Source: a virus. From it: a stretch of 64,000 nt of DNA. The position numbers and the translations under genes were made by a program. The stretch lies in IMG/VR virus record IMGVR_UViG_3300045988_148533, positions 32,001 to 96,000 of that record. One strand, written 5' to 3'. Each line of letters opens with the position of its first letter. Position 1 is the stretch's first letter. This document shows positions 39,955 to 63,800 of the stretch, one piece after another. Below the pieces are notes generated by a model that saw only the letters and a program-made list of their open reading frames with translations, did not search any database and was not told the origin of the DNA.

Positions 39955-39962
39955 ATCCGAGG

Positions 39963-40012
39963 CAAATATAGTCAATAATTACGATTACTCCAAGAAAATT
40001 CTCGATTAATCC
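39963..40012 (-). promoter_or_regulatory. conserved phage promoter placed only 8 nt from the ATG (near-leaderless transcript?)
   Basis: The reverse complement of 39963-39970 is TATATTTG. CTCCAAGAAAATTCTCGATTAATC follows after a 20-nt spacer. Confidence 0.55.
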
Positions 40013-47270: not shown

Positions 47271-47275
47271 AATTC

Positions 47276-47557
47276 TTATTTCTTTAATAGTTCCTTAATT
47301 TCTCTTGTCAATTCCTTTCTACTTGCAATAATCCTGTCAATAAGTTTCTGTATCGTGTCTGATTCCTCAATGCTTTCTCTATGTGCTATAATATCCAGTG
47401 CCCTATCTAAAGGTACACCCCAACAAACGTTATCCAGCTTGCCGTCCGGATGCTTAGGGGTGACTTTGATTTGATAAACGTCATAGAACCATGTCGACCC
47501 CTCACTCTGCTGTATAAGGTGCTTTTCACCAACAGGTATCAATCTATCTGCTTCCAT
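47276..47557 (-). CDS. hypothetical protein
   Basis: 93-aa ORF. Confidence 0.55.
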   Translation of the reverse strand: MEADRLIPVGEKHLIQQSEGSTWFYDVYQIKVTPKHPDGKLDNVCWGVPLDRALDIIAHRESIEESDTIQKLIDRIIASRKELTREIKELLKK

Positions 47558-47559
47558 GG

Positions 47560-48090
47560 TTAGAACCCTTTCTTAGTTATATAGAAGCTATTCACCTCAC
47601 CCTCAACCAAATCATTGACAAATTCCTGAGGGGTTACAGGCTTCAGCATATTATTCAACTTCTTGCTCTTGTCCTGCACACTCCACTGCAAGCTGTCAAG
47701 CATACTGAAATTCCTCTGTGCATCAATGAACTCCATTGACAAATCCTGATAACCGTCATCAAGAAGCAGGGCCTCATCAAGAGCCTTTTCAGACAGCTTC
47801 ACTTCCTCGCCATCAACAGTAAACTTTCCAGAATTGGCATTAGCCTCTCTGCGCCACACACGCTTCTTCTCAGCCTCGTAGACATCCCTCTCGAGCTTTT
47901 TCTCAGCCATTGTTTTCTCAGCCTCAGCCCTCAGTAGACCTATCTTATTAAGCAGCGCACTGACGGTAACTGCCTCTCCGTAGAGGTTGCTGTAATCGAT
48001 TGCAGTCAGCCTGTCTACATCCACCGTGCCCTCAAAGCCGTCGGTGGAAAGTGTTACAGGCACATTGTTGAAATGTACTAAAATTTCCAT
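47560..48090 (-). CDS. hypothetical protein
   Basis: 176-aa ORF. Confidence 0.6.
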   Translation of the reverse strand: MEILVHFNNVPVTLSTDGFEGTVDVDRLTAIDYSNLYGEAVTVSALLNKIGLLRAEAEKTMAEKKLERDVYEAEKKRVWRREANANSGKFTVDGEEVKLSEKALDEALLLDDGYQDLSMEFIDAQRNFSMLDSLQWSVQDKSKKLNNMLKPVTPQEFVNDLVEGEVNSFYITKKGF

Positions 48091-48105
48091 GATAAAATCT
48101 CCTTT

Positions 48106-50127
48106 TTACATTAACGCAAATATCAGCATTCGTGTTGTCATATCAGCACGAATTATGTTCACACCTTTCTTGCTGTCGTTGGACAGTGAACCATTAATTA
48201 GAATAATGTTGCTCTTAGCCTTTTTCACGAACTCCTGAAGCCTGTCATAATCCCCTCCAAATATCAGGACTTCTATGAACTCATAGTTGCTTTCAAGCGT
48301 CATCTTGCAGAATGTCTTAGGGGCTGTTCTACGACCACCCTTTGTCGTCTTAACCTCAACATCAGCCACATAACCACCCACAACAACCATTCCTTCTCCA
48401 GCCTTGACTTTCCGAGAGGTATCATTGCACTGCTCCACCGTCACATAGGAATACTCATCTGGGAAGCTACCTCTGTTATTCTCATACAGCCTATCATACC
48501 TGAAGAACGCGAACCCAGAAAGCTGCTTCTGCATAAGTCGCCACCACCACCCATCCTCACGATGCACGTATGCACCATTGAGGAGAGGGTCACTGTCATC
48601 AATCTTAATCCTGTTCTTCTCAAAATACCTTCGCAGCAGAGACACCCTTTCCCGTACATCGGTAATGTTCTCTATGCTGTCAAACGCACCGCTCAGAATG
48701 AGGTTCTTAATTACTCGGCTGTTCACTGCCGTACCCTTCCAGTTATGGCGACTGACAAAGTCCTCAATTGACCAGTACTGCCCATTCTCATCTCTCTCCT
48801 TGAGTATCTGGTCAGCAGCCTTGTCGGCTACCTGTTTAACACCCATAATTGACCAATATAAAGACTGTGTCTTAAAGTCTATCACAACATTCTTAGTAGA
48901 GATGTTAATATCCACAGGTTTCACTTCACACACGCCTGTCTTATTAATCTCAGCAATATAGCGTGGATAGTCATCATCCGTAGCATACTTAAAGGCCACA
49001 CTCCAGTACTCAATAGGATAATGAACTTTCAGCCACTGAGATATATACCCTGTAATTGCATAGGCAGCTGCGTGACTCCGATTAAATAGGTAGAGGGATG
49101 CTTTATCAATAGCTTCCCACACACTCTCAGCATAATCATGGCTGACGCCAAAATGCTCCATATAATATGGGGTGAACCTCTCATGATACTGATGCAGTGC
49201 CTCATATTTCTTCTTCACCATCGCCTTACGCACATCATCAGCCTCAACCAATGACAAACCTCCTAAAACCTTACACAACTCCATAACAGACTCCTGATAT
49301 ATCACAAGGCCAAATGTCTTCTCAAGCACTTTTTCAGCACCCACCCAATATTTCACCTTACTCGGGTCTGCCTTACGAATAATATAATCCTCATGGAATC
49401 CATTCTCCATTGCTCCAGGACGATATAGGGAAATGGCAGCTATCAGGTCTTCAATGTTGCGTGGCTGCATCTGCTTACAGTATCCAGTCAACCCTCTACT
49501 GCCAAAGTGGAAATTATCCTCATTCCAGCCGTTGCAGAAATACCTGTACACCTCTCTATCATCAAGAGGTGTGCTGTATATATCCACGTCCACACCCTCA
49601 TTCTCCTTTATTAAGGTAATCATCTCCTGAAACTTATCCAGCTGCTTCACACCCAGAATATCCTGTTTCAAGAATCCAGCACTGTCCATCTCACCACCTT
49701 CCCATTCGCTGACATATTCCTCACCCTGTTTTCTGATTGGAACCCAGTGGAACATATCGTGTTCCTTAGGAAAAATCATCGTAGCACAGGCATGAATGGA
49801 CTGTGCCTTGGGGGCAGGCATAAGCAGCATCACCTCATTCACTATATCAGGGTGCTCTGTCACGAATTTCTTAACATTCTCATCCGCACAGGCTATCTTG
49901 AACAGGTCTTCCGGCTTACGGTCACTAACATCAAATACTTTCATCATCTCATTCACCGTCTGGAATTCCAACCCGTATATTCTGGACATGTCCTTAATGG
50001 CCGCTCGCAGTTGCAGTGCGCTGTACGTACCCACGGAACATACTCTACTCCACCCGTATCGTTCTTCCATATATTTCTTCACCCGAGGTCTATCAACCGA
50101 GGGGAAGTCAACATCGATTTCACTTCG
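48106..50127 (-). CDS. dnaE: DNA polymerase III alpha subunit (DnaE-type), downstream exon: catalytic Asp motif, palm, fingers and C-terminal OB region
   Basis: The track ORF (GTG at 50082) reads MKKYMEERYGWSRVCSVGTYSALQLRAAIKDMSRIYG..., then LYRPGAME and HAAAYA. My upstream translation of the same frame gives GRSEIDVDFPSVDRPRV, which is the PDxDxDF-type catalytic motif. No start codon lies between it and the TAA at 50137-50139. The 5' boundary (about 50125-50127) is inferred. Confidence 0.75.
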   Translation of the reverse strand, partial: RSEIDVDFPSVDRPRVKKYMEERYGWSRVCSVGTYSALQLRAAIKDMSRIYGLEFQTVNEMMKVFDVSDRKPEDLFKIACADENVKKFVTEHPDIVNEVMLLMPAPKAQSIHACATMIFPKEHDMFHWVPIRKQGEEYVSEWEGGEMDSAGFLKQDILGVKQLDKFQEMITLIKENEGVDVDIYSTPLDDREVYRYFCNGWNEDNFHFGSRGLTGYCKQMQPRNIEDLIAAISLYRPGAMENGFHEDYIIRKADPSKVKYWVGAEKVLEKTFGLVIYQESVMELCKVLGGLSLVEADDVRKAMVKKKYEALHQYHERFTPYYMEHFGVSHDYAESVWEAIDKASLYLFNRSHAAAYAITGYISQWLKVHYPIEYWSVAFKYATDDDYPRYIAEINKTGVCEVKPVDINISTKNVVIDFKTQSLYWSIMGVKQVADKAADQILKERDENGQYWSIEDFVSRHNWKGTAVNSRVIKNLILSGAFDSIENITDVRERVSLLRRYFEKNRIKIDDSDPLLNGAYVHREDGWWWRLMQKQLSGFAFFRYDRLYENNRGSFPDEYSYVTVEQCNDTSRKVKAGEGMVVVGGYVADVEVKTTKGGRRTAPKTFCKMTLESNYEFIEVLIFGGDYDRLQEFVKKAKSNIILINGSLSNDSKKGVNIIRADMTTRMLIFALM

Positions 50128-51220
50128 CCCCCACCATTACTGATGGGGGCATAACATCAGGCAGGGATACCGGAACGAATCCCTGCCTGAACTCCTTTTC
50201 AATTTTTACTATTTTCGACATACTTAAAAAATTTACCTATCTGCCCTGAATATAACCCCATTTCCTTCATACCATTAGAATCATACCCCTGTTTCCAAAG
50301 CTGAACCATGCGGTATGCACCATAATATTTGGAGTCACACTCATTTAATATATAACGTTCTATCTCCTTTTGCGTAGACAATTTTCTGTCCGAAATTAAA
50401 TATCTATATTTACGAATTTTCTTCAACCCATACATTCCAAGAAAATCCGCTTCACGCATATAACTGTAAAAATTACATTCCCCTGTCCATAAATCATACA
50501 CCCAACATGATTTCGCCTTCACATTTTTACCGCCCTTGCTTTTACCATTCTCCCTTCTCTTAATGGAAAGATTTTTCTTTTGTTCATCAGTCCATCTACG
50601 ACCATAATTAGGATTGGTCTCACCCTCAAAACGCGGAGGAAGCCCACCTCCCACCATCATATTTAAAACATCTGGTCGAGAAATAAAGGCCTCATCCACA
50701 ATCCTCGCTTCGGACTCTAAAGCATCCTTAATGGAATGAAAATAACAAATAATCCTCTTTTTAAAATTCAAGTACCCATATTGTAGCAATGCTTTTCTAA
50801 ATTTCGTTTCCTTCTCCTTATGACGTTTATATAAAACACCGCTTTTCCTTATTAAACACCCATTCCCTATATAAGTGTCAAATTCCGGGTGTAACCCCTT
50901 ATAAACCCTGACACCAATATAAATATCATTAGTTATTACACACTTGGTTTCGTACAAATAAACCACGCGACGACCACCCAAATCAACGGGTATTTCAGAA
51001 TAATTAATACACTTGCTTAAATAGTCCATAATTCAATAAATTTAAGCAAACACTAAAGTCAAAATCAATAAGCAAGCAATTCGTCATTGACTTTAAAATC
51101 CTTTGCCTTGGCAATTATCTTATTTCCACCCCTGAACAAAACAAGTTCTTTATTTTCATCAAATTCCAAGATTCTGCCATTATCAAGAGTAATTTTAACA
51201 ATATTCTGCTTACGTACATA
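50128..51220 (-). mobile_element. intervening sequence in dnaE (probable group I intron, boundaries +/- about 5 nt) carrying a GIY-YIG homing endonuclease gene
   Basis: The exon 1 frame reads ...LLFERFLNKGRVG and then diverges from DnaE. The exon 2 frame resumes at (G)RSEIDVDF. Candidate splice points follow a U (51221 or 51225) and a G (50128 or 50126). Two strong hairpins lie in the 3' part at 50163-50194 and 50128-50151. Confidence 0.55.
50199..51029 (-). CDS. GIY-YIG homing endonuclease (I-TevI-like)
   Basis: VVYLYETKCVITNDIYIGV is the GIY-x10-YIG element, with conserved Arg and Glu downstream (FRKAL, ESEARIV). The C-terminal part is a basic, NUMOD-like linker region. The gene is A+T-rich. 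Confidence 0.8.
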   Translation of the reverse strand: MDYLSKCINYSEIPVDLGGRRVVYLYETKCVITNDIYIGVRVYKGLHPEFDTYIGNGCLIRKSGVLYKRHKEKETKFRKALLQYGYLNFKKRIICYFHSIKDALESEARIVDEAFISRPDVLNMMVGGGLPPRFEGETNPNYGRRWTDEQKKNLSIKRRENGKSKGGKNVKAKSCWVYDLWTGECNFYSYMREADFLGMYGLKKIRKYRYLISDRKLSTQKEIERYILNECDSKYYGAYRMVQLWKQGYDSNGMKEMGLYSGQIGKFFKYVENSKN

Positions 51221-52675
51221 ACCAACTCGGCCCTTATTCAAGAACCTTTCAAACAGCAGCCCATACTCCAGAGGGTCAAGTTTTGTAATCCCTATAAGAT
51301 AGGAAATAAGACATCCTCCAGCACTGCCCCTACTTATACCTGTCAATATGCCGTTTTCATGACACCAATTGACAATGTCTCGAGTTATTAGGAAGTAGTC
51401 AATTACATTACCGAACTTAATCACGTCTATTTCCCTCTCTAATCGCTCCAATACGACATCTTCACCCCACCTGTCAACCAACTCAGGATGAGCAGCCAGA
51501 CCTTCCTCTATGAGGCCTAAAAACATCTCCTCATTGGTTGTGTACTTAGCAGCCTCATCAGGCTTCATCTCGTACTTAGGAAGATGCCTGTTGGCTGTGT
51601 CTATCGTAAAGTCACACCCATCCGCAATGTCATTCAACAGCTGCATTGACTCGAGAAACAACTCTGCACCCACCTCTTCTTCAGAGAATAACTGCAAGAA
51701 TTCCTCATACACAGCCTCATTTGACTTAAAATACTGATTATCACTTGCATACCCCATTCTGCCTGCAATACGATGCAGCCTATCCGGAATATCCGCATAT
51801 TCAGCATCTATGTACCATGCATCACTAAACACCAGAGGCACAAGATTAGTGTCATAGAAGAATTTCTTAAGGTTCTTCAAGTACCACTCATCATGCCTCT
51901 CATCACTGTAAGCACACGTGTCAAGCTGATAGAAAGCTGTATCAATATTCGCCTTACGAAATTCTTCGTAATCAAGTGTCTTAGGGTCAAGAATAACAGT
52001 AATATCATCATTGTTTCCTACAATTTCCCTAAATCTGTCAAGTGCCACCCACCCTGAATTGACACAGTTAATCTCAGTGTTGATTGTTAAAAGGGTCTGC
52101 CACCCTTCAAAATTTCGGGCATAGACTTTCACTACAAAACGCACATCACTGTCAATGTCATACACGGTACACCCCATCCCGATGATGGGTTTAATGCCGA
52201 ACTTCTGACATTCCATCTGAAATTTTAAAGCCCCTGCAAGAGAATTAACTTCACAGACACCCAGATTCCTTACCCCAAGAAACTTAGCCTTGCGACACCA
52301 ATCCGTGTAAGTACCGCTTCCTGAAAGAATCTCATACTGTCCATGAACCCCCAAAAAAGTGTCCGTAGGAAGAGGAAAGGTACTTTCACCGAGGTATTTC
52401 AGCCTGTTCAACTTGACATCATTCTCCTGCCCCCTGTCCAGCCAGTACCACACCCCTCCGAACCTATACACGTACCTGTCGGCAAGTGTTTCATTATCCT
52501 CATGTGGTTCAGTGTTGTATGGCTTGCCTATAAAGCAAAAGCCGTCATCAAACAGTGAACCGTCATCGGCAGGCACATACAGCTCATACGTCCTGTCCCC
52601 TATTTCCACAACGGCATCAGACACCTCTGTGTAGGCTATACCATTTTCCTTGAGATATGCTATCAGTTCTTCCAT
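51221..52675 (-). CDS. dnaE: DNA polymerase III alpha subunit (DnaE-type), upstream exon: PHP domain and start of palm
   Basis: FLGVHGQYEILSGSGTYTDWCRKAKFLGVRNLGVCEVNSLAGALKF is the PHP domain. ISRGSAGGCLISYLIGITKLDPLEYGLLFERFLN is collinear with the bacterial DnaE RGSAAGSLVAY..GIT..DP....LLFERFLNPER. The ORF reads through to the stop at 51065, but homology ends near 51221. Confidence 0.8.
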
Positions 52676-53319
52676 CTGTACATTTCTACTCTTGCCTGAA
52701 TAATATCCGTAACATCATCACCGTCATGACGGCCTATCCCAATCAGTGACTGAGCCAGACGCTCACTCTCATGATTGTTAATCTCATAAGCATCAGAATG
52801 ATAGTCACACAGTATAATCTGTGCCTCCTTACCTGTTTCAGCTGCTACCCTGAACATCTCCTTAGCTTCATATATGAAGCGTAGGCTCCCGAAGAGTATG
52901 TCACAGTTATCACGCTCAACCTCAGGCATTTTGGCAAACTTAGCAAGTGCTCTGTCCGCTGCCGTTCTCGCCCAGACATCATCGCCTGCAAGATGCTTTA
53001 TCTCTTCACCGACACGCTGCAACAGCTCTCTGCCTGTAACGGATACTGAAGCCAGAGAGCCTCCGCTGCAGAAGTCGTATGGCTTGTGTGGGAGGTAAAC
53101 AGTACTGCGCATCTTCTTCCACATAGCATATTCCTGACTGAGAGTATTCACAGGCATTCTATTACCTGTGATGACGAAATACACGAAATCTCTTATTGCA
53201 TCAGAAAAATCCACCTCTATAACAGAACGACCCTCAATAGCAGCCTTCTGCCTGTAAAGATTGGCGGTGTATGACTTACCACCGCCAATCACACCTATGA
53301 ATCCATAAACCTTACTCAT
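52663..53319 (-). CDS. P-loop nucleotide kinase (dNMP kinase-like)
   Basis: The Walker A is GFIGVIGGGKSYTANLY. Size and context fit a phage deoxynucleotide monophosphate kinase. The start was set to the ATG at 53319. Confidence 0.55.
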   Translation of the reverse strand: MSKVYGFIGVIGGGKSYTANLYRQKAAIEGRSVIEVDFSDAIRDFVYFVITGNRMPVNTLSQEYAMWKKMRSTVYLPHKPYDFCSGGSLASVSVTGRELLQRVGEEIKHLAGDDVWARTAADRALAKFAKMPEVERDNCDILFGSLRFIYEAKEMFRVAAETGKEAQIILCDYHSDAYEINNHESERLAQSLIGIGRHDGDDVTDIIQARVEMYRWKN

Positions 53320-53845
53320 ACATCGAAATATATGCAAGAATACGTGGAAAATCCTTACCGTGCCTGTGAATCAGCTTCATACACGTATCACGTGTCTCAA
53401 GTATTTCCTTACTGCGATTACCATACGTTATCTCCTTGATACAGAAAATCAGCAGTTCAAGATAGTCGCAGCACTTAAACAGCGCATACTGTCTCTCATT
53501 CAATGCAGCCTTGATATTCTCATCAGAATATTTCTCGAGATGAGTGCCCTGTGTCAATTCCTTCTCTATAACAGCCCATGCCCTCTTAGTTTCCTCACTG
53601 AAATTCTTAACAGGATACGTCAGGTCGCCTGTAATGGCTTCCACGGCATCATGCTGAAGCACAATGTCAAACTCGTGCATGGTATATGCCACATCCTCAA
53701 TTGAGGCCCACCACTTGAAAAGAATGGCGGTACGATAGCAGTGCTCCGCTATATTGTAGTGCTGATGGTGAAATGTACCTGTGAATCTTTCCACGTTGGA
53801 CATCCTGTACAGATTCTGTATGTCCTCTATAATATTACGCATCAT
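53312..53845 (-). CDS. HD-domain phosphohydrolase (YfbR-like 5'-deoxynucleotidase)
   Basis: NIAEHCYRTA supplies the first His and LQHDAVEAITGDLTYPVK the HD...E..tGD motif, as in the YfbR family. Confidence 0.7.
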   Translation of the reverse strand: MMRNIIEDIQNLYRMSNVERFTGTFHHQHYNIAEHCYRTAILFKWWASIEDVAYTMHEFDIVLQHDAVEAITGDLTYPVKNFSEETKRAWAVIEKELTQGTHLEKYSDENIKAALNERQYALFKCCDYLELLIFCIKEITYGNRSKEILETRDTCMKLIHRHGKDFPRILAYISMYE

Positions 53846-54942
53846 AGTCCAAACACCTCATTAAGAATAGGGTTCTCAAATCTTTCCTGTGCAACAGGAC
53901 ATCCAAAGTGGTGAACCTTTTCCCACTTCCGAGCAAATACACGTATCCAGTCACGCTCCAGAGCGGACTTCGCCTTTTCAAGAGTATATTCCTTCATGCA
54001 GTCAACACCTTCTCTGAACAGTCTTTCCTGAGTGGCAATGCTAACCATAGCGTCATCAAAGTCAAACAGACTATTGAACGCCTTAGGATAGTAATAGCTG
54101 TGAACAGGGAATTCCTCTCCATAGTACTTATTAGCGACATCCTCAACGAGAGGCACAAAATCCTCATACACGTGCAGATTGTCTGCCTTGTGATAGTACA
54201 CACCCACAGGCACACCCAGAATATTCGCAACATATTCCTGCATTAGGGTGAAGTTGAAAACATTCACTGCACTAAATCCCCATATCAGGTCATTGCTGCG
54301 AATGTCCACATAACAGTTCAGCTTACCGTTCACAATCATAAAGTGAATGGAACGTGTACAGGGTGTATCCTTGGTAGGGAGAACCTGAAGATTCGTGTCA
54401 ACAGGTTTCAGCCTAAACAGAAAGTCATCTGCAATGGGGTTGTGAATTGTGATGCACGCCTCACGAGTGGTTATATCCTCCTTGAACTTTTCCAAGACAA
54501 ATCTAAGCTGGTCAACTCTACCCTTTGCAAGCAGCGGTGACTGCCAATCCTCCATGTACTGATTACCTGTCATTACATCGCTGTCCTTATACTGCATTAC
54601 TCTCTTGAATGAATCATAGGCTCTTATGCGAGGGCCGTATCCAGCTCTCATATACTTGCCGTCATCCGAGAAATTATTCAAATTAGTGACATAGGCAGCA
54701 GGCATTGTCATGCTGTTACTGCCTAATGCAAGCCACAGAGACTCCACCCATCCGAGTGTCCTGTTCCACTTGCGCTCTGGAACAGTAACATATCTCTCAC
54801 ATGGATTGGTTATAGCTATCATCACAGGCTCTGGAAACTCATAGCACCTGTGGCCACGCCTCATCTGTTCAATGCCGTGTTCCTTCAGTTCACGACAGAG
54901 GCGTATAAATGCCTGATTAAGACTGTCAAATTCAAAATACAT
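53842..54942 (-). CDS. thymidylate synthase-fold pyrimidine hydroxymethylase/methylase homologue (enlarged, 366 aa)
   Basis: DTPCTRSIHFMIVNGKLNCYVDIRSNDLIWGFSAVNVFNFTLMQEYVANILGVPVGVYYHKADNLHVYED matches the TS-core pattern PC...fqF.v.dgkL.....RS.D...G.pfNi......l....a...g...G...h..gd.HiY, including the nucleophile Cys. Confidence 0.8.
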   Translation of the reverse strand: MYFEFDSLNQAFIRLCRELKEHGIEQMRRGHRCYEFPEPVMIAITNPCERYVTVPERKWNRTLGWVESLWLALGSNSMTMPAAYVTNLNNFSDDGKYMRAGYGPRIRAYDSFKRVMQYKDSDVMTGNQYMEDWQSPLLAKGRVDQLRFVLEKFKEDITTREACITIHNPIADDFLFRLKPVDTNLQVLPTKDTPCTRSIHFMIVNGKLNCYVDIRSNDLIWGFSAVNVFNFTLMQEYVANILGVPVGVYYHKADNLHVYEDFVPLVEDVANKYYGEEFPVHSYYYPKAFNSLFDFDDAMVSIATQERLFREGVDCMKEYTLEKAKSALERDWIRVFARKWEKVHHFGCPVAQERFENPILNEVFGL

Positions 54943-54944
54943 AA

Positions 54945-55985
54945 CTAAATATTTTTAAGTAATACACTATTTCTATCGGGAAGTTTACATTTACCCCATT
55001 TGGGAGGGAAAACGTACTCCAAGCCACCATGAGGAGAATACATTCTCTTTATCCTCTCCTTGCTACCTGACTTGAAGGTAGCTCCAAGCCCCTTTGCATA
55101 CTTGCTAATCTCACAGAAGCAGTTCTGCAAGTTGGTAAGCGTTGGAACAGGTTCCCACGGCAGAGGATGCCACTCCATGCCTGACTCTCTGCAGAAATCG
55201 TGCATAAGTTCCTCAAAATTACTCTGAAGCCACCTTATTGCACCGACATAGTCATACTTCTTACCGTTAGCACCCTCAAATACCCACCGAATCCCCCTAA
55301 GACTTCCTGGCCCTGTAACCACGAAATCATTCTCTGTAAAGTTGAATATAGAGGAGTAATTAAGGTCTATCGCGTACTGCTGCGCTATGAAATCACCATA
55401 TATGCGCATCGAGCGAAATTCCCTATATAGAGCCTCAAAGGAATCCGCCCTCAAAAAGTCCCACAGCCTGTCATTTCCAAAAATTTCATTCTGAAAAACT
55501 CTGAAATATGCCCTGTGCTTACTCAGCCCCTCCATCCAGCTGTACTCCGGCAGCTGATAGAAATATCCGGTAACAATGTATGCACTGTTGTATATGTTCA
55601 CACCCTCTTCAAGCAGTGTGTCCACATAGTCAGCCATCGCCTCAAGATAAGTACCTGTGTTCACATTATAGCGTATATCCCCGAATTCCTTTTCAAGGAG
55701 CTGCCACGTCTCAATCTTGTTAAAATGCTTGAACAACAGCACTCTAAAGAATATGTCCTCAGGGGTGTACTGCCTGCCATTATACAGAACATTCCGAATA
55801 AGGTACTGACTGACCCTGTCAAGACACCTGTAAACATTCGTAAAGGAATACTCACAGAGTATAGGGTCTGATGTCCACGGCTGCTCATCACCCCTGTACT
55901 TGTGCCAGAAAATATTCATCCGTTCACACATCCAGTACAGCAGCCATGTTAGATTCTCTTTATTCGGGATTATTCTGCTCTGCAT
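54945..55985 (-). CDS. aGPT-Pplase-like protein (alpha-glutamyl/putrescinyl thymine pyrophosphorylase family) - tentative
   Basis: FWHKYRGDEQPWTSDPILCEYSFTNVYRCLDRVSQYL matches my recollection of the W..DPIL..y.FtNvyRelDR signature of this DNA-hypermodification family. It lies between the TS-like gene and the P-loop kinase gene. The start is ambiguous: ATG at 55985 or 55931. Confidence 0.5.
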   Translation of the reverse strand: MQSRIIPNKENLTWLLYWMCERMNIFWHKYRGDEQPWTSDPILCEYSFTNVYRCLDRVSQYLIRNVLYNGRQYTPEDIFFRVLLFKHFNKIETWQLLEKEFGDIRYNVNTGTYLEAMADYVDTLLEEGVNIYNSAYIVTGYFYQLPEYSWMEGLSKHRAYFRVFQNEIFGNDRLWDFLRADSFEALYREFRSMRIYGDFIAQQYAIDLNYSSIFNFTENDFVVTGPGSLRGIRWVFEGANGKKYDYVGAIRWLQSNFEELMHDFCRESGMEWHPLPWEPVPTLTNLQNCFCEISKYAKGLGATFKSGSKERIKRMYSPHGGLEYVFPPKWGKCKLPDRNSVLLKNI

Positions 55986-56700
55986 ACCTATTCTGATTGA
56001 TATAGTTACCCTTATTAACGTATTCTCTAAATTCCCCACAAATTTCGGGAACACCAAAGAATTCAAAGATGCTGCACCCCAAATCCCACACAGGAGAACT
56101 GTACGCTTCCTCCTTAATCACCACATTTGCCCCCTCAGCATTCAGCAGTGCAGCTTCCTCTCGTGACTTAGCAATGTCACTCTCAAAGCCACTTCTCTTG
56201 TGCCACATTGCGTCCCCCTTCGGAGGTTTTCCCGAACGGTACACCACCCTGTCATAGTACTCCTCATGTTCCTTTTCTGTAAAGTCATAGCGCACATATA
56301 GGATGTTCATGAATTCACACACGGCTATAAGTTCCATCGGTCTAAGCCTCCATGAGACTGACGTGCCTGCCCCCTCCAGAAGAACATTCATCCTCTTCAT
56401 GCCTACTTCCTTTAGGAAGTCTGACACACCTGCCGAATTGACAAATCTGCTTGTAACACTGTCCAGCCCCTGCCACCGCCTTACACCTTGATTTTCATAG
56501 AACTTGCCTATCACAATTAAGTTGAATTCCGGAACATATACCCCCACTTCCTTCTCCTTGCCCTCAGAATTGACCCATCTGTACGGCTGAAATTCCACAC
56601 CAATGCTTTCCAGAAAATCAAGAAAGCAGTAAACCCGAGTGGATTTACCGCTTCCAGACGTACCCTTGACAAGGACTATGGTTCCGTAGTCCTTTATCAT
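55960..56700 (-). CDS. P-loop kinase (candidate 5-hydroxymethyl-pyrimidine DNA kinase)
   Basis: The Walker A is IVLVKGTSGSGKSTRVYCF and the Walker B-like element is NVLLEG. Context is the hypermodification cluster. Confidence 0.55.
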   Translation of the reverse strand: MIKDYGTIVLVKGTSGSGKSTRVYCFLDFLESIGVEFQPYRWVNSEGKEKEVGVYVPEFNLIVIGKFYENQGVRRWQGLDSVTSRFVNSAGVSDFLKEVGMKRMNVLLEGAGTSVSWRLRPMELIAVCEFMNILYVRYDFTEKEHEEYYDRVVYRSGKPPKGDAMWHKRSGFESDIAKSREEAALLNAEGANVVIKEEAYSSPVWDLGCSIFEFFGVPEICGEFREYVNKGNYINQNRYAEQNNPE

Positions 56701-56704
56701 GATG

Positions 56705-57295
56705 CTATTTCTTTTTTATGAGTGAAACAGATGTAACACGCTTCTTGACAGGCTTTGCATCGCCAATCTTGACCATGCACTTCTCCTTGCCGTCGCTGCT
56801 GCGATACAGCCTTACAACTTCACCCTTTTCGTCAGTACCGGACAGCATGACATTGCATCCGACTTTCAGTCCGGGATTCTCGGTAGACTCCTCAATGTCC
56901 TCACGCTTTGTAGCCACCTTTTCCTTCTTGGGCTTAGGAGCAGGCTTCGGAGCCATGTTCTTGTCTTTCTTGGTAGGTGACTTGCGCTTTGCCTGCCTCT
57001 CCTCGAATTCCTTCTCAGCCTCCTCAAGACGAGCCTGTTCCTCTTCAGAAATCGGGCTCTCCTCTTCGGGCTGAGGGTCAGGCTCAGGTTCCTTCTTGGA
57101 TTTAGGTGCAGGCTTTTTCTTAGGTGCAGGCTTCGCTGCTTCCGATGCACTTTCGCCGAGTTTCTTGTCCAGAATGGACTGTGCTACTTTCTTTTCAGTT
57201 TCAGAGGATTCCTCGCTTTCTACGATAGCTTGCAGTTCCTCAATGCTTTTCCTGTTGTAGGAAAATTTCAGTGCTAATTCTTTGTTGTTTGCCAT
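56705..57295 (-). CDS. Lys/Glu/Pro-rich protein with small C-terminal beta domain
   Basis: 196-aa ORF with PAPKKKPAPKSKKEPEPDPQPEE... The C-terminal KVGCNVMLSGTDEKGEVVRLY...MVKIGD is SH3/KOW-like. Confidence 0.65.
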   Translation of the reverse strand: MANNKELALKFSYNRKSIEELQAIVESEESSETEKKVAQSILDKKLGESASEAAKPAPKKKPAPKSKKEPEPDPQPEEESPISEEEQARLEEAEKEFEERQAKRKSPTKKDKNMAPKPAPKPKKEKVATKREDIEESTENPGLKVGCNVMLSGTDEKGEVVRLYRSSDGKEKCMVKIGDAKPVKKRVTSVSLIKKK

Positions 57296-57315
57296 AATCG
57301 TTTTTGTTTGTGATG

Positions 57316-57362
57316 CAAAATTAATACTTGTTATTTAATCTACCAAATTTTTCTCTTATTTT
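57316..57362 (-). promoter_or_regulatory. Bacteroidota-type promoter (TAATTTTG -7 box; TTTGG 20 nt upstream)
   Basis: The reverse complement of 57316-57323 is TAATTTTG. The reverse complement of 57343-57347 is TTTGG. The ATG is at 57295. Confidence 0.6.
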
Positions 57363-57799
57363 CCCGTATGACCAAAACCACCCTCACCTCTTTCAGAACT
57401 GTCAAGCATGCTCTCACTGTCAACACTAATCATCGAGACATCATGTGTTTTCACTATCACCATCTGAGCTATTCTGTCATGATTGTGGACAACAAACGGC
57501 TCTTCTCCGTGATTCATCAGGATGACTCCAACTTCTCCACGGTAATCTGCATCAATAGTCCCAGGAGAATTAAGCACAGTAATTCCATGCTTTAAGGCAA
57601 GGCCACTTCGAGGTCTTATCTGGGCCTCAACACCTTCCGGCAGCTGCATCTTGATTCCTGTCGGAATCAATGACCTTTCATGAGGCATTATCATAATATT
57701 CTCATTAAGACAGGCATAAATATCATATCCTGCCGAGAGCCTTGTCTGCTTCATTGGCATGATAGCCCCCTCCTTGAGGTAAATCTTTACTACTTCCAT
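57356..57799 (-). CDS. dut: dUTP diphosphatase (trimeric dUTPase)
   Basis: SAGYDIYA, RSGLALKHGITVLNSPGTIDADYRGEV, RIAQMVI and RGEGGFGHTGK are the five canonical dUTPase motifs. Confidence 0.92.
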   Translation of the reverse strand: MEVVKIYLKEGAIMPMKQTRLSAGYDIYACLNENIMIMPHERSLIPTGIKMQLPEGVEAQIRPRSGLALKHGITVLNSPGTIDADYRGEVGVILMNHGEEPFVVHNHDRIAQMVIVKTHDVSMISVDSESMLDSSERGEGGFGHTGK

Positions 57800-57802
57800 T
57801 TT

Positions 57803-58261
57803 CTATATCAACTTGTAATTATTAATGATTGTCACATCTGTATAATTAACGTCATACGTCTCAGAACCAACCCTTATCCTCAGGGAATCCTTAGCTGGAT
57901 TATTACTTATAACTCTTGCCTCCTGACGATTATACCTGACAACAGTACCTCTGTATAGGAGATACCACTTGTCATAGTTCCCCTGTATTTTTCTCTGACT
58001 ATCATCTTTATACATAAATCGTGGAAGCCCATACGCCTGCCAGAACTCATTCCTAATGAAATTCTCACCATACAGTCTATCAGTGAATATATTAGGAACG
58101 CCCATTCTTGCAGACACTTCCATTATCTTGGTAGCCTTTTTCTCTGCAATGTCCTCCGCAACCTTAGCATACGCAGTATCCCTGTATATCATGGAACGGA
58201 GCTTCTGTGTAAGATACTCCAACTGCAACACATACAGAAATTTCCTCTTTTCTTCTTTCAT
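57803..58261 (-). CDS. hypothetical protein
   Basis: 152-aa ORF. Confidence 0.6.
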   Translation of the reverse strand: MKEEKRKFLYVLQLEYLTQKLRSMIYRDTAYAKVAEDIAEKKATKIMEVSARMGVPNIFTDRLYGENFIRNEFWQAYGLPRFMYKDDSQRKIQGNYDKWYLLYRGTVVRYNRQEARVISNNPAKDSLRIRVGSETYDVNYTDVTIINNYKLI

Positions 58262-58266
58262 ATCAA

Positions 58267-59295
58267 CTAAATATGATTAAGGTAAAAATTCATCGGGTCC
58301 TGAGCATTAGCAAGAACCTCATTCAGCTGACTTACAGTTATATTTCCGGGGTCAACTCCTGGAATATCTATATTAGCGACCCTGACACTTTCAAAGTTTT
58401 TCGACAGCAGCAGGGATGTTTCCTTGCTCTCCTGCACAGTCCCGTAGTCGTACAAAAGTAGTATATTTTTCACTCTCTTATGCTGTAACATATCTATCTG
58501 TCCCCTGCCTATGCTGTTACCGAATGTGAAACAGCATTTAAGCCACTCAATATCTCTTAGACCAAGAATATTCCAAATGTTGACAAAATCAAAAATACCC
58601 TCTACAAGAATAACTGTATCAGTCACACCCTCCTGCAAAAAATCATAGCCCCCCAGTAAGTCCTGAAAGTTATTCTCACTATTGCGATACCTAAGCATCA
58701 AGTCTTCCTTATGTGCCTTGTATGCCTCAAGATTCCTCTTATGCCACTCCTTTGAATACCTACTTCTCGCCCACCACGCAACAGGCACACCATCTATCTT
58801 CATCTTAAAGATAATGTAGTTATTCAGTCGCTTCTCCAAAGCAGAATCTGTGTAGGAGGGTTCAAACTCACGATAGTGTTCCTCTCTAAAACCTCTCTTA
58901 TTTAAATATTCATCATCCGTCAATGGTTTTATACGCAAAGGCAGATTAATCGGCTTTAACGACTTAAAATCCTCCTTAGTTGAAGTATCCTGCATCCATT
59001 CCGACACCTCACCCTGTGCTTCGAGCTTAGGCAGTCTGACATTTGCTGCTGTTTCCCTATAATTGATATGGCACAGGTCTTTTCTACCTATCTTCTGTAA
59101 AAAGTCGTACAGGGAAGTCTTACGTGGACATTTCCAACAGTGAAATGTGGCCACCCCATTTTCATTAAAAATGACACCCCATTTTCCTTTCTTACCGCAG
59201 AAGGGACATTCCATGTTCTTATTTGAAAACCACCCCTGCGACCCGAAAGGTGCAAGATTAAGCTCTGATATTATCTTATTCTTATCAAACCGCAT
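58267..59295 (-). CDS. DNA primase (zinc-binding domain plus TOPRIM)
   Basis: CPFCGKKGKWG...FHCWKCPRK is the zinc ribbon. VILVEGIFDFVNI carries the TOPRIM Glu and LLLYDYG the DxD-like region. The gene is adjacent to the helicase. Confidence 0.8.
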   Translation of the reverse strand: MRFDKNKIISELNLAPFGSQGWFSNKNMECPFCGKKGKWGVIFNENGVATFHCWKCPRKTSLYDFLQKIGRKDLCHINYRETAANVRLPKLEAQGEVSEWMQDTSTKEDFKSLKPINLPLRIKPLTDDEYLNKRGFREEHYREFEPSYTDSALEKRLNNYIIFKMKIDGVPVAWWARSRYSKEWHKRNLEAYKAHKEDLMLRYRNSENNFQDLLGGYDFLQEGVTDTVILVEGIFDFVNIWNILGLRDIEWLKCCFTFGNSIGRGQIDMLQHKRVKNILLLYDYGTVQESKETSLLLSKNFESVRVANIDIPGVDPGNITVSQLNEVLANAQDPMNFYLNHI

Positions 59296-60835
59296 TTCTC
59301 TTCCTGTTGAAGTAATCCTTCAATGACTCCTTGTTTTCCTCCTTGGGAACAACAGCATCCTCACTGCCAAACACTCCTGGAGCAACCTCCTTTATCTGCT
59401 GTGGAGCACTGTCACTCTTACGCCTCTTCGGACGCCTTTCCTCAGCGGTTGTAAGCACCGAAACATCCAGTACGGCTTCCTCCTGTACAGACCGTGTCAT
59501 ATCATAGAAGAAGCCATGCTCATAGTCAGTAGGTATTCTCACTATAATGCCGTTGTTCTTATAATTCCTAAGTTTGTCACAGAATATACGTGCAATGTTC
59601 TTATCACTTTCCTCTATCGTTATGTTACCTGTGAACACAAATGAGAAAGGCTTCACAAGTGTCCTGTCCCCCTCAGTGTTATGCCTTGTAATCACTCTTG
59701 AGGGGTCATTCCATATCTCCATGGGGACATCGCTTGTCTGACAGGCCGTTATCACGACACAGTCATATTTCACGGCTATATCCTTCATCCTCTGGGCATT
59801 CCTCTGCAGCCTGTACTTCAAATAATTAGGGTCATAGTCCAGCTTCTTGGAATCCCCTGTAAGCAGCAGGTCAAGACTGTCAACCGTTATCAGGTCAGGA
59901 TAGTACCCATATTCCTTCTTGTAATCCTCTATGGCCTGCACAAGCTCTCCGAATGTCATGTCAAGCATCTCCTCAGAGGCATACACGTCTATATCACTGT
60001 TTACAGTTGCAGCTCTCTTAATGAGTGCAGCAACTTTCTTACGTGTGCTCTCACTGAGCTCCCCCTTGACAATCTTTGTATATGTCGTCTTAGCAAGCAT
60101 CTGGTCAAACTTGAACACTGCTTCGTCAACACCACCCTCAAGCTGAAAATGCAGGCAGTGATTGTGAGCAATGCTCGTGTTATACCAACAGAAGAATTTC
60201 AAAGCCGTCGACTTACCCACTCCAGAACGCATTATCCACAGTGCTGTATCCTTTCGTGGTATGCCTCCGTCGGTAAGTTCATCCAGCTTAGTAATTCCAA
60301 GAGGCATCTTGCTGCGACGTACCTCATCCTCGGCTCTCATCTGTGCTGCTGTGGTATTCTTATAAAAGTCCCGATACACTCGTGAAAACTTATGTCTGTC
60401 AGTCAAGGAAAAGGCATTCACCTCTCTGATACGCTTTTCCATCAACTGCATTGCCTCCTCAGAACGACCCTCATTGTAAATATCCACAACCTCTCTCTGA
60501 GAAGCTACAAACATCTGTCTCCTGAGAAATATTTCCAGCTGCTCAACCATAGGCTCCACATCCGGAACCTTTAAACTCTTGACTTCCTTAATCTTATCCT
60601 GAATATCCTTATTATTAGGATAAGTCATCTCAACAGTACCAAATGTTGCAAGATTCCCCCCATTGTTCATAGTATCTGCAAGAACTTTCAACATAGCCTT
60701 GCAGGCTCCCATCTCACGAGGGAAATTACTTACGTCAACATTGCTGACGACCATCTGTGCAAACTGCCTGTTCGCAAATGCAAGCCTAAGCAGTTCCTCA
60801 ACGAAATTCGGACTCAACACCGCATCAACAGCCAT
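59285..60835 (-). CDS. DnaB-like replicative DNA helicase
   Basis: GITKLDELTDGGIPRKDTALWIMRSGVGKSTALKFF is the Walker A in RecA-fold context, and LITVDSLDLL is Walker B. The N-terminal helical domain is typical of DnaB and gp4-like helicases. Confidence 0.85.
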   Translation of the reverse strand: MAVDAVLSPNFVEELLRLAFANRQFAQMVVSNVDVSNFPREMGACKAMLKVLADTMNNGGNLATFGTVEMTYPNNKDIQDKIKEVKSLKVPDVEPMVEQLEIFLRRQMFVASQREVVDIYNEGRSEEAMQLMEKRIREVNAFSLTDRHKFSRVYRDFYKNTTAAQMRAEDEVRRSKMPLGITKLDELTDGGIPRKDTALWIMRSGVGKSTALKFFCWYNTSIAHNHCLHFQLEGGVDEAVFKFDQMLAKTTYTKIVKGELSESTRKKVAALIKRAATVNSDIDVYASEEMLDMTFGELVQAIEDYKKEYGYYPDLITVDSLDLLLTGDSKKLDYDPNYLKYRLQRNAQRMKDIAVKYDCVVITACQTSDVPMEIWNDPSRVITRHNTEGDRTLVKPFSFVFTGNITIEESDKNIARIFCDKLRNYKNNGIIVRIPTDYEHGFFYDMTRSVQEEAVLDVSVLTTAEERRPKRRKSDSAPQQIKEVAPGVFGSEDAVVPKEENKESLKDYFNRKRNAV

Positions 60836-60859
60836 ATTGAACCCTCCTTATATCTATAA

Positions 60860-63800
60860 TCATACTGTATCAATTTTAATCTGTACATTACCCTCTCTGA
60901 GGTAATTAATAGCCATATAGGATGATGATAACGTATCATCGTGGCCGCTTATACTCTCCAATGTTCCCTTGTCACTTCTAAAGGCAACGGAATTAAATTC
61001 ACCGAAAAGCATATTTATCTTGTCCCTGTCATCATGATGATACGGTACTTTTATCACACCTCTCTCAAAAAGAGCAGCCAATGACGGCCACCCACTCCGC
61101 AAATCCTTCTTATTGTTAGTGGTTGTAAATCTTATAATATTCTTGACACCACCGTCTATCGCCAGACTACCCAGCACCGACTGGAAGTTATTGTTCTCCA
61201 CCACAACAGCATTCGGCCTGAATATCGTATTCAAAGTGATAATCCTCTGCACCTGTTCATCATACGGCATACCCTTTGCCCTGTATAGATGCAGAAGATA
61301 ATAAATACCCATCCTATCCCTGCCCCACACTGTGAAACAAGTATAGTCAGCACCGACAGCACCGCTTATTCCAAAATCCACTCCAACAGCTACTGCATCC
61401 AGTTTGTAGGGGAAAGACTCTTGATTGTTCACAAGGTGAACATTCTCCATTCCAATTGTGCTTCGCTTTAGAATGTCCCACGGAAATATTGTGCTATCGT
61501 CCGATATCGGCACCACCAGATACTCCCTCGAAAATACCAAGGAGCCTGCGGATTCCCTCTCAGCCATCAACTTCTCGAACGTAAATCTATCCGGAGCCAA
61601 CAACCTACCATCAGGAAAAACAGCAGGGTATTCAAATACCTTGAACTTACCGTCTTTCTTCAAGGAATCATAAAGGTCAGTCGATTGGTACGGGGTATTA
61701 TGAGAAATGATGCCATTTGAAAGAAATGTATGAGTTTTACCCATTGTAAAATCAACCGTTATACTCCTACCCTTTCCAATTGACTTCACCCTCAAAAAAG
61801 TGTACCCTCTTTCGGCATTAGCTTTCAATTCAAATGCTTCCTCACTTACGACTCCAGATGCAGCCACCCATTTTCCAACATTTTGAATATCCCTTAACTT
61901 ATGAATACTCACTTTCTTTTTACCCCACATCTTCAACCTCTCCAAACCAAAAGTTTTTCTATCAGAAATCGTAAGGGGTTTTTGCTTTCTAACAGCCTTA
62001 ATCAATCTACTCTGATACGGTACACGCAACAAGGAAAGACTATTACGGTATTTAAAAGTGTGCCATTTATCACCCTTTCCGGAATTAGGAAATCCAATTT
62101 CCTTCATAAAAAGGTTAATCATCTCTTCACTGTCAATCCTAAGCAGATACCCCATTCTGTTGGACTTAACCCTTTCAGAACTCTGACATTTCTTAACCTT
62201 AACTGAAGACAGTATTCCAAGATTGAGTAGTGCAAACTGTATCTGACGTATTAACTCCATGCTGACAGAAAAACAGCTTATATTTCCATCAATTGAAAAA
62301 CATCCATCACCATCAAAATAACCCGACAAAAACTTTGTAATTTCTCTCTTTCCAGCATGAAATATCTTTTCAGGAATCACCTTAGTATGGCTATACCACC
62401 CCAATTCATATCCCAAAGAAGCCCATAATTCACGCTTATCAGCTTTATAATATCTTAAATGAATTCCATCATAAACACCGTTCACCTCCCTCCATCCTCT
62501 ATCAATTAAATACTGCCTAATACCAGCATTTCTCTTTGCAATAGTTATTCTATCACTGGATAAATGCCCATCGGCAATACTTAATCCTATTTGATACAAT
62601 TCATCATCACTTATATTAAGAGACTCTCCCCATATATTTGCACCCACTTTCATAGCCACAAAATCACCGATACAAATATCTTCAGCCTTCTTCCATTTAT
62701 AACAGCCGTCATCACCACATACCATAATAGGATGAATCATGCTCGTTTCCAGCGTAAACCCTTTTTCCAACTGAATCAACCTTGTCTCCGTTTCACCATT
62801 TATATAATATTTTTCAGCCAGCTCTAATTCCTGACCATTATAAATGAATTTATTGAAAGAATAATACCCCTTAGGACTTGTGAGTGGTACAGGGCAAAGT
62901 TCTCCTATCATACGAATACCCCTATCCGTAAGTACAAATGTATCCGGTGAAACACAACCGTCCACAATGTTATACCCATAAGGTTCCACAATAGGAGAGA
63001 TGGAACCTTTGAAAATATTTTCCAGCTTCTGCCTCTGTTCCAAGGAGTAGATACTACTCTCATCAGGGAGGTCATCACTAACAGCTGCTCCAACGTGCAG
63101 ACCTCGAATAAATCCTCCTGCTCCTCTGAGGTGTAGCTTAGTACCATTCTCACCCTCAACTGACTTCTCTGCCAGAACCGCCTTGCCGTTAGGGTTTATG
63201 ACATGACATAGAATGTCATTAGCCTTTATCTCCTCAACTATCTTATCCACGTGTTCCTTTCCAAGAGTTTCCGTATTGGTTATAATACACGTTTCCTGTC
63301 GATTCTTATTATCAGGGGTATCAGGCTTCATATAGTTTGGTCTGCGATAGCTGTACAGCCTCCACAGCGGGAAGGCGAAGCAGAACTCATAGGAGTTGTG
63401 AACCACTGTACCGTCCTCCAACTGAAATAGATGGTCTCCATCCGTCATGAACCCATAATAGGATTCCTTTCCAATAGGCTCTATAACTATATCCATCTTC
63501 TCCAGTACAGGCGTATCAGGAGAAAACACTCTGTACCCCTTGAACCTCTTACGCCTGAGGGGTGTCAATGAATAATACCTCTCAGCCTCAATCTCGACAT
63601 ATTCCTTCTTCTTAGTGTCAAACAGGCATAGGATGTGTGGTGCGTTTACAGCATACGCCATACCTCCTTCCTGCTCTATACGGTACATATCACTGAATCC
63701 TATGTGCCTCGTCAATACCTTTCTTGGGGTATAGTCTATGCCCATCACCTCCATCCCAGGATATATATCTTCAACATTCTTGACAGTAAAGTCTGCCATC

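Follow-up and report, generated by a model that had tools for sequence, protein, structure and literature searches.

A small number of cultured phages of Pseudomonadota and Bacillota are known to hypermodify thymidine. In phage ViI, gp243 puts a single phosphate on 5-hydroxymethyldeoxyuridine (5-hmdU) in DNA, and the clade-2 enzyme AADT (PF18724; M6 gp51, ViI gp247) is the one shown to displace this phosphate (PMC8989533). Glycine, serine, putrescine or diaminopropane take its place in the reactions of clade-2 enzymes (PMC8989533, PMC13458397, PMC11472151), and the AADT mechanism involves attack of a Cys at C6 (PMC11472151). Here, a related locus is described in a viral stretch of 64,000 nucleotides (the window: positions 32,001 to 96,000 of the IMG/VR record IMGVR_UViG_3300045988_148533). 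Seven consecutive open reading frames (ORFs) on the minus strand (window 52663-57799) encode predicted precursor enzymes, a 5-hmdU DNA kinase and a protein of family PF18723, and on balance we read them as a minimal module for thymine replacement and DNA-level modification. Judging by homology, the operon very probably serves to substitute 5-hydroxymethyluracil for thymine and to phosphorylate this base once it is in the DNA.

All seven genes recognised by an initial annotation, made from the letters of the window, are present, and the motifs it quoted were found in the translations: DTPCT and RSNDLIWG...SAVNVFNF in the thymidylate synthase (TS)-like enzyme, PWTSDPILCEYSFTNVYRCLDRV in the fourth protein (protein 4), GTSGSGKST in the kinase (protein 5) and GVIGGGKS in the first P-loop protein. 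Neighbouring genes overlap by 4-26 nt or lie no more than 60 nt apart. Pfam gathering scores are exceeded by five of the seven proteins, and the gene order is common to 25 IMG/VR contigs that encode homologues of protein 4 (35-70% identity) in a syntenic module, which rules out a chance arrangement.

Protein 5, in which GTSGSGKST forms the Walker A motif, matches PF18747 (HMUD2) at 5.5e-20, with 72 bits against a cut-off of 25. It also matches ViI gp243 (phmmer, 5e-14), and tblastn matches fell on gp243 (orf00243) and on similarly placed genes of related phages; by these matches, protein 5 is a 5-hmdU DNA kinase of the HMUD2 type. Protein 4, whose gene shares 26 nt with the end of the kinase gene, covers positions 5-273 of the 281 of the PF18723 profile (1.1e-72, 245 bits against a cut-off of 25). 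A scan of reference proteins places ViI gp160 (4e-83), M6 gp55 (8e-56) and the C-terminal half of SP10 gp186 (2.4e-44) in this same family. SP10 gp186 is an HMUD1 kinase fused to PF18723, and by analogy with this fusion and with the M6 pair gp54-gp55, kinase followed by PF18723 is a natural unit. The family is very large (more than 7,500 homologues were found) and accompanies the pathway in SP10, PhiW-14, ViI and M6.

The two middle proteins thus fall into HMUD2 and PF18723, and not into unrelated families. The initial annotation had read the signature W..DPIL..FTNVYR..DR of protein 4 as that of an aGPT-Pplase (alpha-glutamyl/putrescinyl thymine pyrophosphorylase), which was right as to the lineage but not as to the transferase: by its profile match, protein 4 is a PF18723 protein of clade 1 ('Pplase1') and not a member of the proven transferase clade 2 (PF18724), to which it gave no Pfam match at E values up to 0.1. 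In the reference scan, it is M6 gp51 that belongs to PF18724 ('ADDT'). A sequence search of the PDB with protein 4 gave no relevant match. The start of its gene is most likely at 55985: the closest homologue (P0001) is 346 aa long and covers 100% of the query, and the invariant R22 and near-invariant E21 lie upstream of the gene caller's start at 55919, which gives 324 aa. Before correction of the starts, the ORF of protein 4 extended over 54945-56066 and that of the first P-loop protein, called from the ATG at 53319, over 52663-53337.

The AlphaFold2 model of protein 4, built on 104 homologues, is all-alpha and has a pLDDT of 94.3. Among predicted viral structures, Foldseek matched it to SP10 gp186 (2.7e-11), PhiW-14 C9DG43 (9e-7) and other PF18723 proteins, some of the matches bearing the name 'Pplase1 ... 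clade 1', and more weakly to an AADT-domain protein (E = 0.037, TM 0.45-0.51). In a fold search of the PDB, the AADT PaMx11 gp46 (8z2m, E = 1.4) ranked first, followed by OGG-type helix-hairpin-helix (HhH) glycosylases, none of them significant (E at least 1.4). As modelled, the PF18723 fold appears related to AADT and to the HhH glycosylases. An alignment of 156 PF18723 sequences, including phage and bacterial proteins and the ViI, M6 and SP10 members, is invariant (156/156) at R22, D56, A135, F199, D207, G227, C291, E292 and K295, and protein 4 carries every one of these residues. MAFFT sets the (Q/E)-x-x-x-C-E motif of the family opposite the catalytic Cys motif of AADT, an alignment without statistical support by hhalign. 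In this statistically unsupported pairing, Q287-N288-x-x-C291-E292 of protein 4 faces E243, T244 and C247 of PaMx11 gp46, that is, the metal-binding Glu-Thr before the catalytic Cys; a correspondence of the two motifs is suggestive only.

The enzyme that would supply the modified precursor is the TS-like protein (PF00303, 1.7e-16). Its best phage match is SPO1 gene 29, a dUMP hydroxymethylase (33% identity, 4e-29), in agreement with the TS-fold dUMP hydroxymethylase proposed at the outset, and its best PDB match is the CMP hydroxymethylase MilA (1.8e-18). It stays far below all NCBIfam ThyA equivalog cut-offs (best scores: 61 vs. 174.6 bits; 41 vs. 108.4 bits) and, by these scores, does not qualify as a canonical ThyA. 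Aligned with SPO1 gp29, SP10 gp188, M6 gp58, T4 gp42 and E. coli ThyA, it retains all TS catalytic residues. The Asn of SAVNVF, suspected early on of specifying dUMP, aligns with Asn177 of E. coli TS; T4 gp42, a dCMP hydroxymethylase, has Asp there, and so does MilA in a pairwise HMMER alignment. The window enzyme has NFSDDG at the place of FSDDG in SPO1 and SP10, YSDDG in M6 and EWADENG in E. coli TS (the segment that includes W80 and W83). The TS C-terminus is replaced by a long extension. A scan of 24 TS-like proteins, encoded on 22 related viral contigs and the contig of this phage, found RSNDxxWGxSAVNxFN unchanged in every one. The enzyme groups with the dUMP hydroxymethylases of SPO1, SP10 and M6 and is predicted to be a dUMP 5-hydroxymethylase.

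The remaining genes (Table 1) are of uneven clarity. By sequence, the protein encoded at 57356-57799 is a bona fide dUTPase (PF00692 2e-34; NCBIfam dUTP diphosphatase equivalog, 186.5 bits against a cut-off of 103; PHROG 135, 5e-57). The HD protein matches PF12917 (6.4e-20) and the PHROG families of dATP triphosphohydrolases and dNMP (deoxynucleoside monophosphate) phosphatases, and stays below the NCBIfam YfbR equivalog cut-off (39 vs. 122 bits); the profile matches uphold the first identification of both proteins, and the HD protein is presumed to exclude thymidine nucleotides (dTMP or dTTP). For the first P-loop protein, initially described as dNMP-kinase-like, PHROG 139 ('deoxynucleoside monophosphate kinase', 9.5e-11) is the sole family support and agrees with that description; Pfam, NCBIfam and PDB sequence searches all gave no match. 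Its gene is kept downstream of the HD gene in the relatives. The Lys/Glu/Pro (K/E/P)-rich protein consists of 19% Lys and 16% Glu, with PAPKKK-type repeats and a short globular segment at the C-terminus; no family match was found in Pfam, PHROG or PADLOC. Its gene adjoins the kinase gene in close relatives too, and the protein possibly binds DNA. As a homologue of M6 gp56 (Nmad5) it was rejected: phmmer gave only 3.9 bits, in a low-complexity region.

Table 1. Genes of the predicted thymine-modification module (window coordinates).
Feature	Position	Strand	Length	Basis of assignment
dUTPase	57356..57799	-	147 aa	Pfam PF00692, NCBIfam equivalog, PHROG 135
K/E/P-rich protein	56705..57295	-	196 aa	Composition; no family match
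P-loop 5-hmdU DNA kinase, HMUD2 ('kinase 2') type (protein 5)	55960..56700	-	246 aa	PF18747
PF18723 protein (protein 4; HMUDK_hel, 'aGPT-Pplase clade 1')	54945..55985	-	346 aa	PF18723
TS-fold enzyme, predicted dUMP 5-hydroxymethylase	53842..54942	-	366 aa	PF00303, SPO1 gene 29 match
YfbR-like HD-domain phosphohydrolase	53312..53845	-	177 aa	PF12917
P-loop protein, probable dNMP kinase	52663..53319	-	218 aa	PHROG 139

A transferase and tailoring enzymes were searched for in the window, in about 16 kb of flanking sequence and in more than 100 loci of relatives. Among the Pfam families displayed for a selection of window ORFs of 70 aa or more (all but 10 weak families of one scan), none is PF18724, a pyridoxal phosphate (PLP) enzyme, a radical S-adenosylmethionine (SAM) enzyme or aGPT-Pplase3, nor is a FAD lyase or acetyltransferase tailoring family listed. 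Phmmer searches of the six-frame ORFs of the window with M6 gp51, gp52 and gp53 and with ViI gp247 and gp226 gave 0 matches, in keeping with the early remark that the cluster holds no donor-tailoring enzyme. A hidden Markov model (HMM) of AADT found no match in these ORFs, in 72 related loci (the capsid gene with 10 kb on each side) or in the 25 module loci. The flanks (7 kb and 9 kb past the window ends; L005, L006) hold structural genes and no PF18724, and in a close relative the 10 ORFs that follow the capsid gene encode structural proteins or homing endonucleases. From the pathway of the type of M6, ViI, PaMx11 and PhiW-14, the hydroxymethylase and the kinase are present by homology, and PF18724 and a tailoring enzyme were not found in the surveyed sequence. 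The hypermodification pathway of the initial annotation is largely right apart from the transferase; since no PF18724 protein was found, the substitution step and the hypermodified base are what we infer and not givens. The pyrophosphorylated hydroxymethyl group invoked as intermediate does not stand, the one shown experimentally being the monophosphate 5-phosphomethyl-dU (5-PmdU; PMC8989533).

From the family memberships, the specificity Asn and the synteny, all established by homology, we infer the following activities and order of steps. The dUTPase would yield dUMP and keep dUTP out of the DNA, and the TS-fold enzyme would convert dUMP to 5-hydroxymethyl-dUMP, which the P-loop protein and a host nucleoside diphosphate kinase would raise to the triphosphate. 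With thymidine nucleotides removed by the HD hydrolase, the DNA polymerase III alpha subunit (Pol III alpha) of the phage would incorporate 5-hmdU instead of T. After replication, the HMUD2 kinase would turn 5-hmdU in the polymer into 5-PmdU; PF18723 might then flip out the activated base, its invariant Cys attacking C6 and the phosphate being expelled, so that a nucleophile or a hydride could add to the exocyclic methylene. A chemical role for PF18723 is plausible in view of SP10, where the kinase is fused to PF18723, no clade-2 enzyme was detected and the DNA contains glutamylthymine and thymine. Tentatively, and with considerable doubt, this can be taken further: PF18723 would itself be a DNA base-modifying enzyme that installs an undescribed thymine derivative in this phage. 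The phage family would diversify its 5-hmdU-derived bases by exchanging the cassette beside an invariant core of PF18723, TS-like enzyme and HD protein, with a kinase here and, in relatives, nucleotide-sugar synthesis plus GT4 or TET-associated glycosyltransferases, or a Pplase3-like protein; bacteria would employ the pair of PF18723 and TS-like enzyme in defence islands.

Several points weigh against the proposed modification by this module. The fold match to PaMx11 gp46 is weak, and hhalign gives the family of protein 4 a probability of only 0.3-0.6% against AADT, with narrow and broad alignments alike. M6 gp55, the PF18723 member of that phage, was dispensable for the transfer step in a lysate reconstitution (PMC8989533), and the literature search found no paper that ascribes an activity to PF18723 or clade 1. 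The substrate of PF18723 need not be a phosphorylated base, since relatives swap the kinase for glycosyltransferases and bacterial islands have no HMUD kinase (see below). On the precursor side, the first P-loop protein, probably a dNMP kinase acting on 5-hmdUMP, is the weakest assignment of the module, and no dCMP deaminase is among the families listed for the window ORFs. Finally, the far tail region of this phage (an estimated ~20 kb) lies outside the survey and is mostly covered in relatives only.

The most serious competing explanation, which we consider unlikely, is that the module restores thymine. The genome would be replicated with 5-hmdU, the kinase and PF18723 would remove the phosphate reductively, and the packaged DNA would contain T, perhaps beside some remaining 5-hmdU, but no novel side group. 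SP10, PhiW-14, M6 and ViI do turn non-hypermodified 5-hmdU into thymine before packaging (PMC8989533), and the literature search found no enzyme assigned to this step. With borohydride, M6 gp51 converts 5-PmdU to thymidine, so that such chemistry is within reach of this fold. Both M6 and ViI have PF18723 alongside AADT; the transfer step of the M6 lysate proceeded without PF18723. The lack of donor-tailoring genes in the window would be expected under this explanation. On the other hand, a reductant-binding domain is not evident in PF18723 or its neighbours, merely remaking T offers no obvious benefit unless some 5-hmdU remains, and there are relatives that combine PF18723 with glycosyltransferases and no HMUD kinase.

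Somewhat less likely again is a PF18723 that acts as a non-catalytic partner, binding DNA or presenting the base, with 5-PmdU at some sites, or 5-hmdU, as the final base. An invariant Cys-Glu...Lys set in 156 of 156 sequences from phages and bacteria would be surprising in a domain that does nothing but bind, and the SP10 kinase domain is active without PF18723 (PMC8989533). Such a role would suit the name that Pfam gives to PF18723, 'helical domain' of the 5-hmdU DNA kinase, as well as the fusion in SP10 gp186, the dispensability in vitro in M6 and the retention of PF18723 while its enzymatic neighbours vary.

This variation is visible among the related phages. In close relatives, the order is DnaB, primase-like protein, 152-aa protein, dUTPase, K/E/P protein, HMUD2 kinase, PF18723, TS-like enzyme, HD protein, dNMP kinase and Pol III alpha. 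In a more distant group (L024-L028, L031, L033; e.g., L025:6464-9332), the K/E/P and HMUD2 genes between the dUTPase and PF18723 genes are replaced, in most members by a ~350-aa HAD-like/APH-like fusion, a ~145-aa CTP_transf_like protein and a ~470-aa GT4 glycosyltransferase. For the fusion, the HAD-like N-terminal motif was read from the sequence, and the C-terminal half has weak APH-type kinase matches only. In L027 (9136-9993), a TET-associated glycosyltransferase (4.7e-11) takes the place of GT4, and L034 (4376-8004) encodes HMUD2, two unknown proteins and a weak aGPT-Pplase3-like protein (E = 0.004) before PF18723, the TS-like enzyme and the HD protein. Another phage lineage has the same minimal set in the order HMUD2, dUTPase, HMUD2, PF18723, TS, and pelagiphages are reported to carry pairs of TS and Pplase1, sometimes with a deoxynucleotidase and a glucosyltransferase (PMC9599517). 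The comparison of cassettes indicates that PF18723, the TS-like enzyme and the HD protein form a stable core with variable genes beside it, and the replaced cassettes suggest that 5-hmdU is derivatised differently, by glycosylation or in some other way, among members of a single phage family.

In the most distant relative (L031:10001-10894, 35% identity), the PF18723 homologue has a Tyr at the otherwise invariant Cys291 position (ICACFYETDKY). Its gene is directly followed by that of Pol III alpha, the TS-like, HD and dNMP-kinase genes lacking there; this PF18723 may be a degenerate or repurposed copy.

Homologues of protein 4 are not restricted to phages: 49 chromosomal loci with bacterial PF18723 proteins, ~41% identical to it, were found, including loci in complete Bacteroidales and Alistipes genomes. 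The taxa concerned (L156-L158, L160-L208) comprise Bacteroidales, Prevotella, Alistipes, Chryseobacterium, Flavobacterium, Psychrobacter, Nostoc and others. Most of these loci encode a TIR-like protein (~162 aa), Nmad2, PF18723 and a TS-like protein, a subset having a radical-SAM gene instead of the TS-like one. Of nine bacterial TS-like proteins sampled, seven share 35-40% identity with the window enzyme along its full length (E 1e-71 to 1e-84), which makes the latter nearer to them than to M6 gp58 (29%) or SPO1 gp29 (33%), and the Asn motif RSNDxxWGxSAVNxFN is present in most of the 25 bacterial TS-like proteins scanned. The bacterial islands may correspond to a defence system that combines TS, dNMP-kinase, '5-hmdU kinase' and NMAD domains and was validated in E. 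coli in 2026 (PMC13092281).

On these grounds, the phage pair of PF18723 and TS-like enzyme could be thought to act against other phages or the host, as in the bacterial islands, and not on its own genome: its TS-like enzyme is closer to most of the sampled bacterial genes that adjoin PF18723 than to those of M6 and SPO1, and the E. coli system is a validated precedent. We hold this improbable. As in SP10 and M6, the pair belongs to a replication module, together with dUTPase, the HD hydrolase and Pol III alpha, and of the related contigs that extend beyond the PF18723 gene a single one does not keep it. Nmad2 has no match in the window (a TIR-like partner was not searched for), and PADLOC returned 0 matches for the eight proteins examined.

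Two further alternatives are poorly supported. It is very improbable that the genes serve ordinary nucleotide metabolism, with a thymidylate synthase, nucleotide kinases and canonical DNA: the Pfam Thymidylat_synt match and the PHROG label 'guanylate kinase' for protein 5 fit such a picture, while the ThyA equivalog scores are far too low, NFSDDG and the C-terminal extension are unlike TS, protein 5 exceeds the HMUD2 gathering score and protein 4 reaches 245 bits with PF18723. A cytosine pathway through 5-hydroxymethyl-dCMP, as in T4, is scarcely credible, for the MilA match that speaks for it is outweighed by an Asn shared with TS and dUMP hydroxymethylases where MilA and T4 gp42 have Asp, and by neighbours from 5-hmdU families.

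The preferred reading, thymine replacement and DNA-level modification, concerns a phage with a genome of ~100 kb (the same proteins occur on contigs of 69.1, 99.6 and 103.3 kb). A megablast search of 46000-64000 against 50,697 phage records gave no nucleotide-level relative, and a tail-fibre query found no relatives. The major capsid protein (L006:19250-20767; on the 99.6-kb contig, its gene lies ~17.6-19.1 kb upstream of window position 1) shares 36% identity with its counterparts in the Bacteroides thetaiotaomicron phages DAC16-23 and SJC03, 33% with that of Chryseobacterium phage MA9V-3 and ~30% with those of Herelleviridae, including SP10; more than 70 related contigs are present in IMG/VR. 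By sequence comparison, this capsid indicates a SPO1-like lineage on Bacteroidota. Together with the BACON-domain proteins encoded in the window and in relatives, the capsid relatives make a Bacteroidota host likely. Phage MA9V-3 was tried as a cultured stand-in and set aside: its first 50 kb gave no tblastn match to the module, and it has folE and queE.

Around the module, a 152-aa protein (57803-58261) that matched no Pfam or PHROG family is encoded between the dUTPase and primase-like genes and is kept at this position in every related contig that covers it; it could belong to the modification module or to the replication genes. Pol III alpha is encoded by two ORFs, one for the PHP domain and the N-terminal part (51065-52675, 536 aa) and one for the finger and HhH part (48106-50082, 658 aa), between which lies a 276-aa ORF without Pfam family (50199-51029); in other lineages it is a single gene of 1138-1141 aa. 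GIY-YIG-like ORFs are scattered in the module of several relatives by motif reading, with profile support in the form of weak matches for one ORF in L034. An intein with Hint and LAGLIDADG domains interrupts the large terminase-like gene (60860-64000, running past the window end), whose product has 1118 aa on the full contig. At 16 kb from the module, a 499-aa protein (38476-39975) has a Zeta-toxin-like P-loop kinase domain (1.2e-31), and a PNK3P phosphatase-domain protein (4.5e-19) is encoded within the first 24 kb of the window; a role of either in the pathway is neither indicated nor excluded.

If the preferred reading is true, thymidine hypermodification would extend to abundant uncultured gut phages of Bacteroidota with ~100-kb genomes, and modified thymine in such phages would affect restriction-based and native-read virome analyses. 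The stripped-down module, with a hydroxymethylase, one DNA kinase and PF18723, offers a natural two-protein system in which the function of PF18723 is directly testable on 5-hmdU DNA. The bacterial pair of PF18723 and TS-like enzyme suggests one chemistry on both sides of the phage-host conflict.

Compared with described systems, the SP10 genes gp185-gp188 (alpha-glutamylthymidine) are similar in that kinase and PF18723 form one unit, fused as gp186, two genes before the TS-like gp188. The latter is of the dUMP-hydroxymethylase type and 33% identical to the window enzyme, and in SP10, too, a clade-2 transferase was not detected (Table 3 of PMC5889632). However, the SP10 kinase is HMUD1 and fused, whereas the window has HMUD2 in a separate, overlapping gene; the large neighbour gp185, radical SAM according to PMC5889632, has no counterpart found in the window; and the SP10 host belongs to Bacillota, that of the window phage probably to Bacteroidota. 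In M6 (gp51-gp59; 5-aminoethyl-dU), the order of kinase gp54, PF18723 gp55 and then TS-like gp58 and HD gp59, the latter of the family of the window HD protein, is alike. Its AADT gp51, PLP decarboxylase gp52, radical-SAM gp53 and Nmad5 gp56 are all without window counterpart, and its kinase is HMUD1. Of the homologues of proteins 5 and 4 that have been handled experimentally, gp243 and gp160 of ViI (5-aminoethoxymethyl-dU) are the nearest, at ~25-29% identity. Its genes, in contrast, are scattered, and it has a second kinase (gp67), an AADT (gp247) and a PLP enzyme (gp226) (PMC8989533).

The bacterial islands share the same subtype of the PF18723 and TS-like pair. They differ in that dUTPase, HD hydrolase, HMUD2 kinase and polymerase do not adjoin the pair, in the added TIR-like protein and Nmad2, and in their location on cell chromosomes instead of phages. 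SPO1-type phages resemble the window in the pre-replicative route, which comprises hydroxymethylase, dUTPase, dNMP kinase and exclusion of thymidine nucleotides, as described for Bacillus phages with hydroxymethyluracil in PMC8989533. From this set, the dUTPase is matched, the HD hydrolase is present, the dNMP kinase is assigned on one PHROG match and a dCMP deaminase is not listed. The SPO1-type pathway as described ends at 5-hmdU, with no DNA-level step, and to it the window adds the HMUD2 kinase and PF18723. The type of pathway is thus already known; new are a module with kinase and clade 1 only, free of transferase and tailoring genes, in a large family of uncultured phages that probably infect Bacteroidota, the swapping of cassettes around a fixed core, and an enzyme pair common to phages and bacterial islands.

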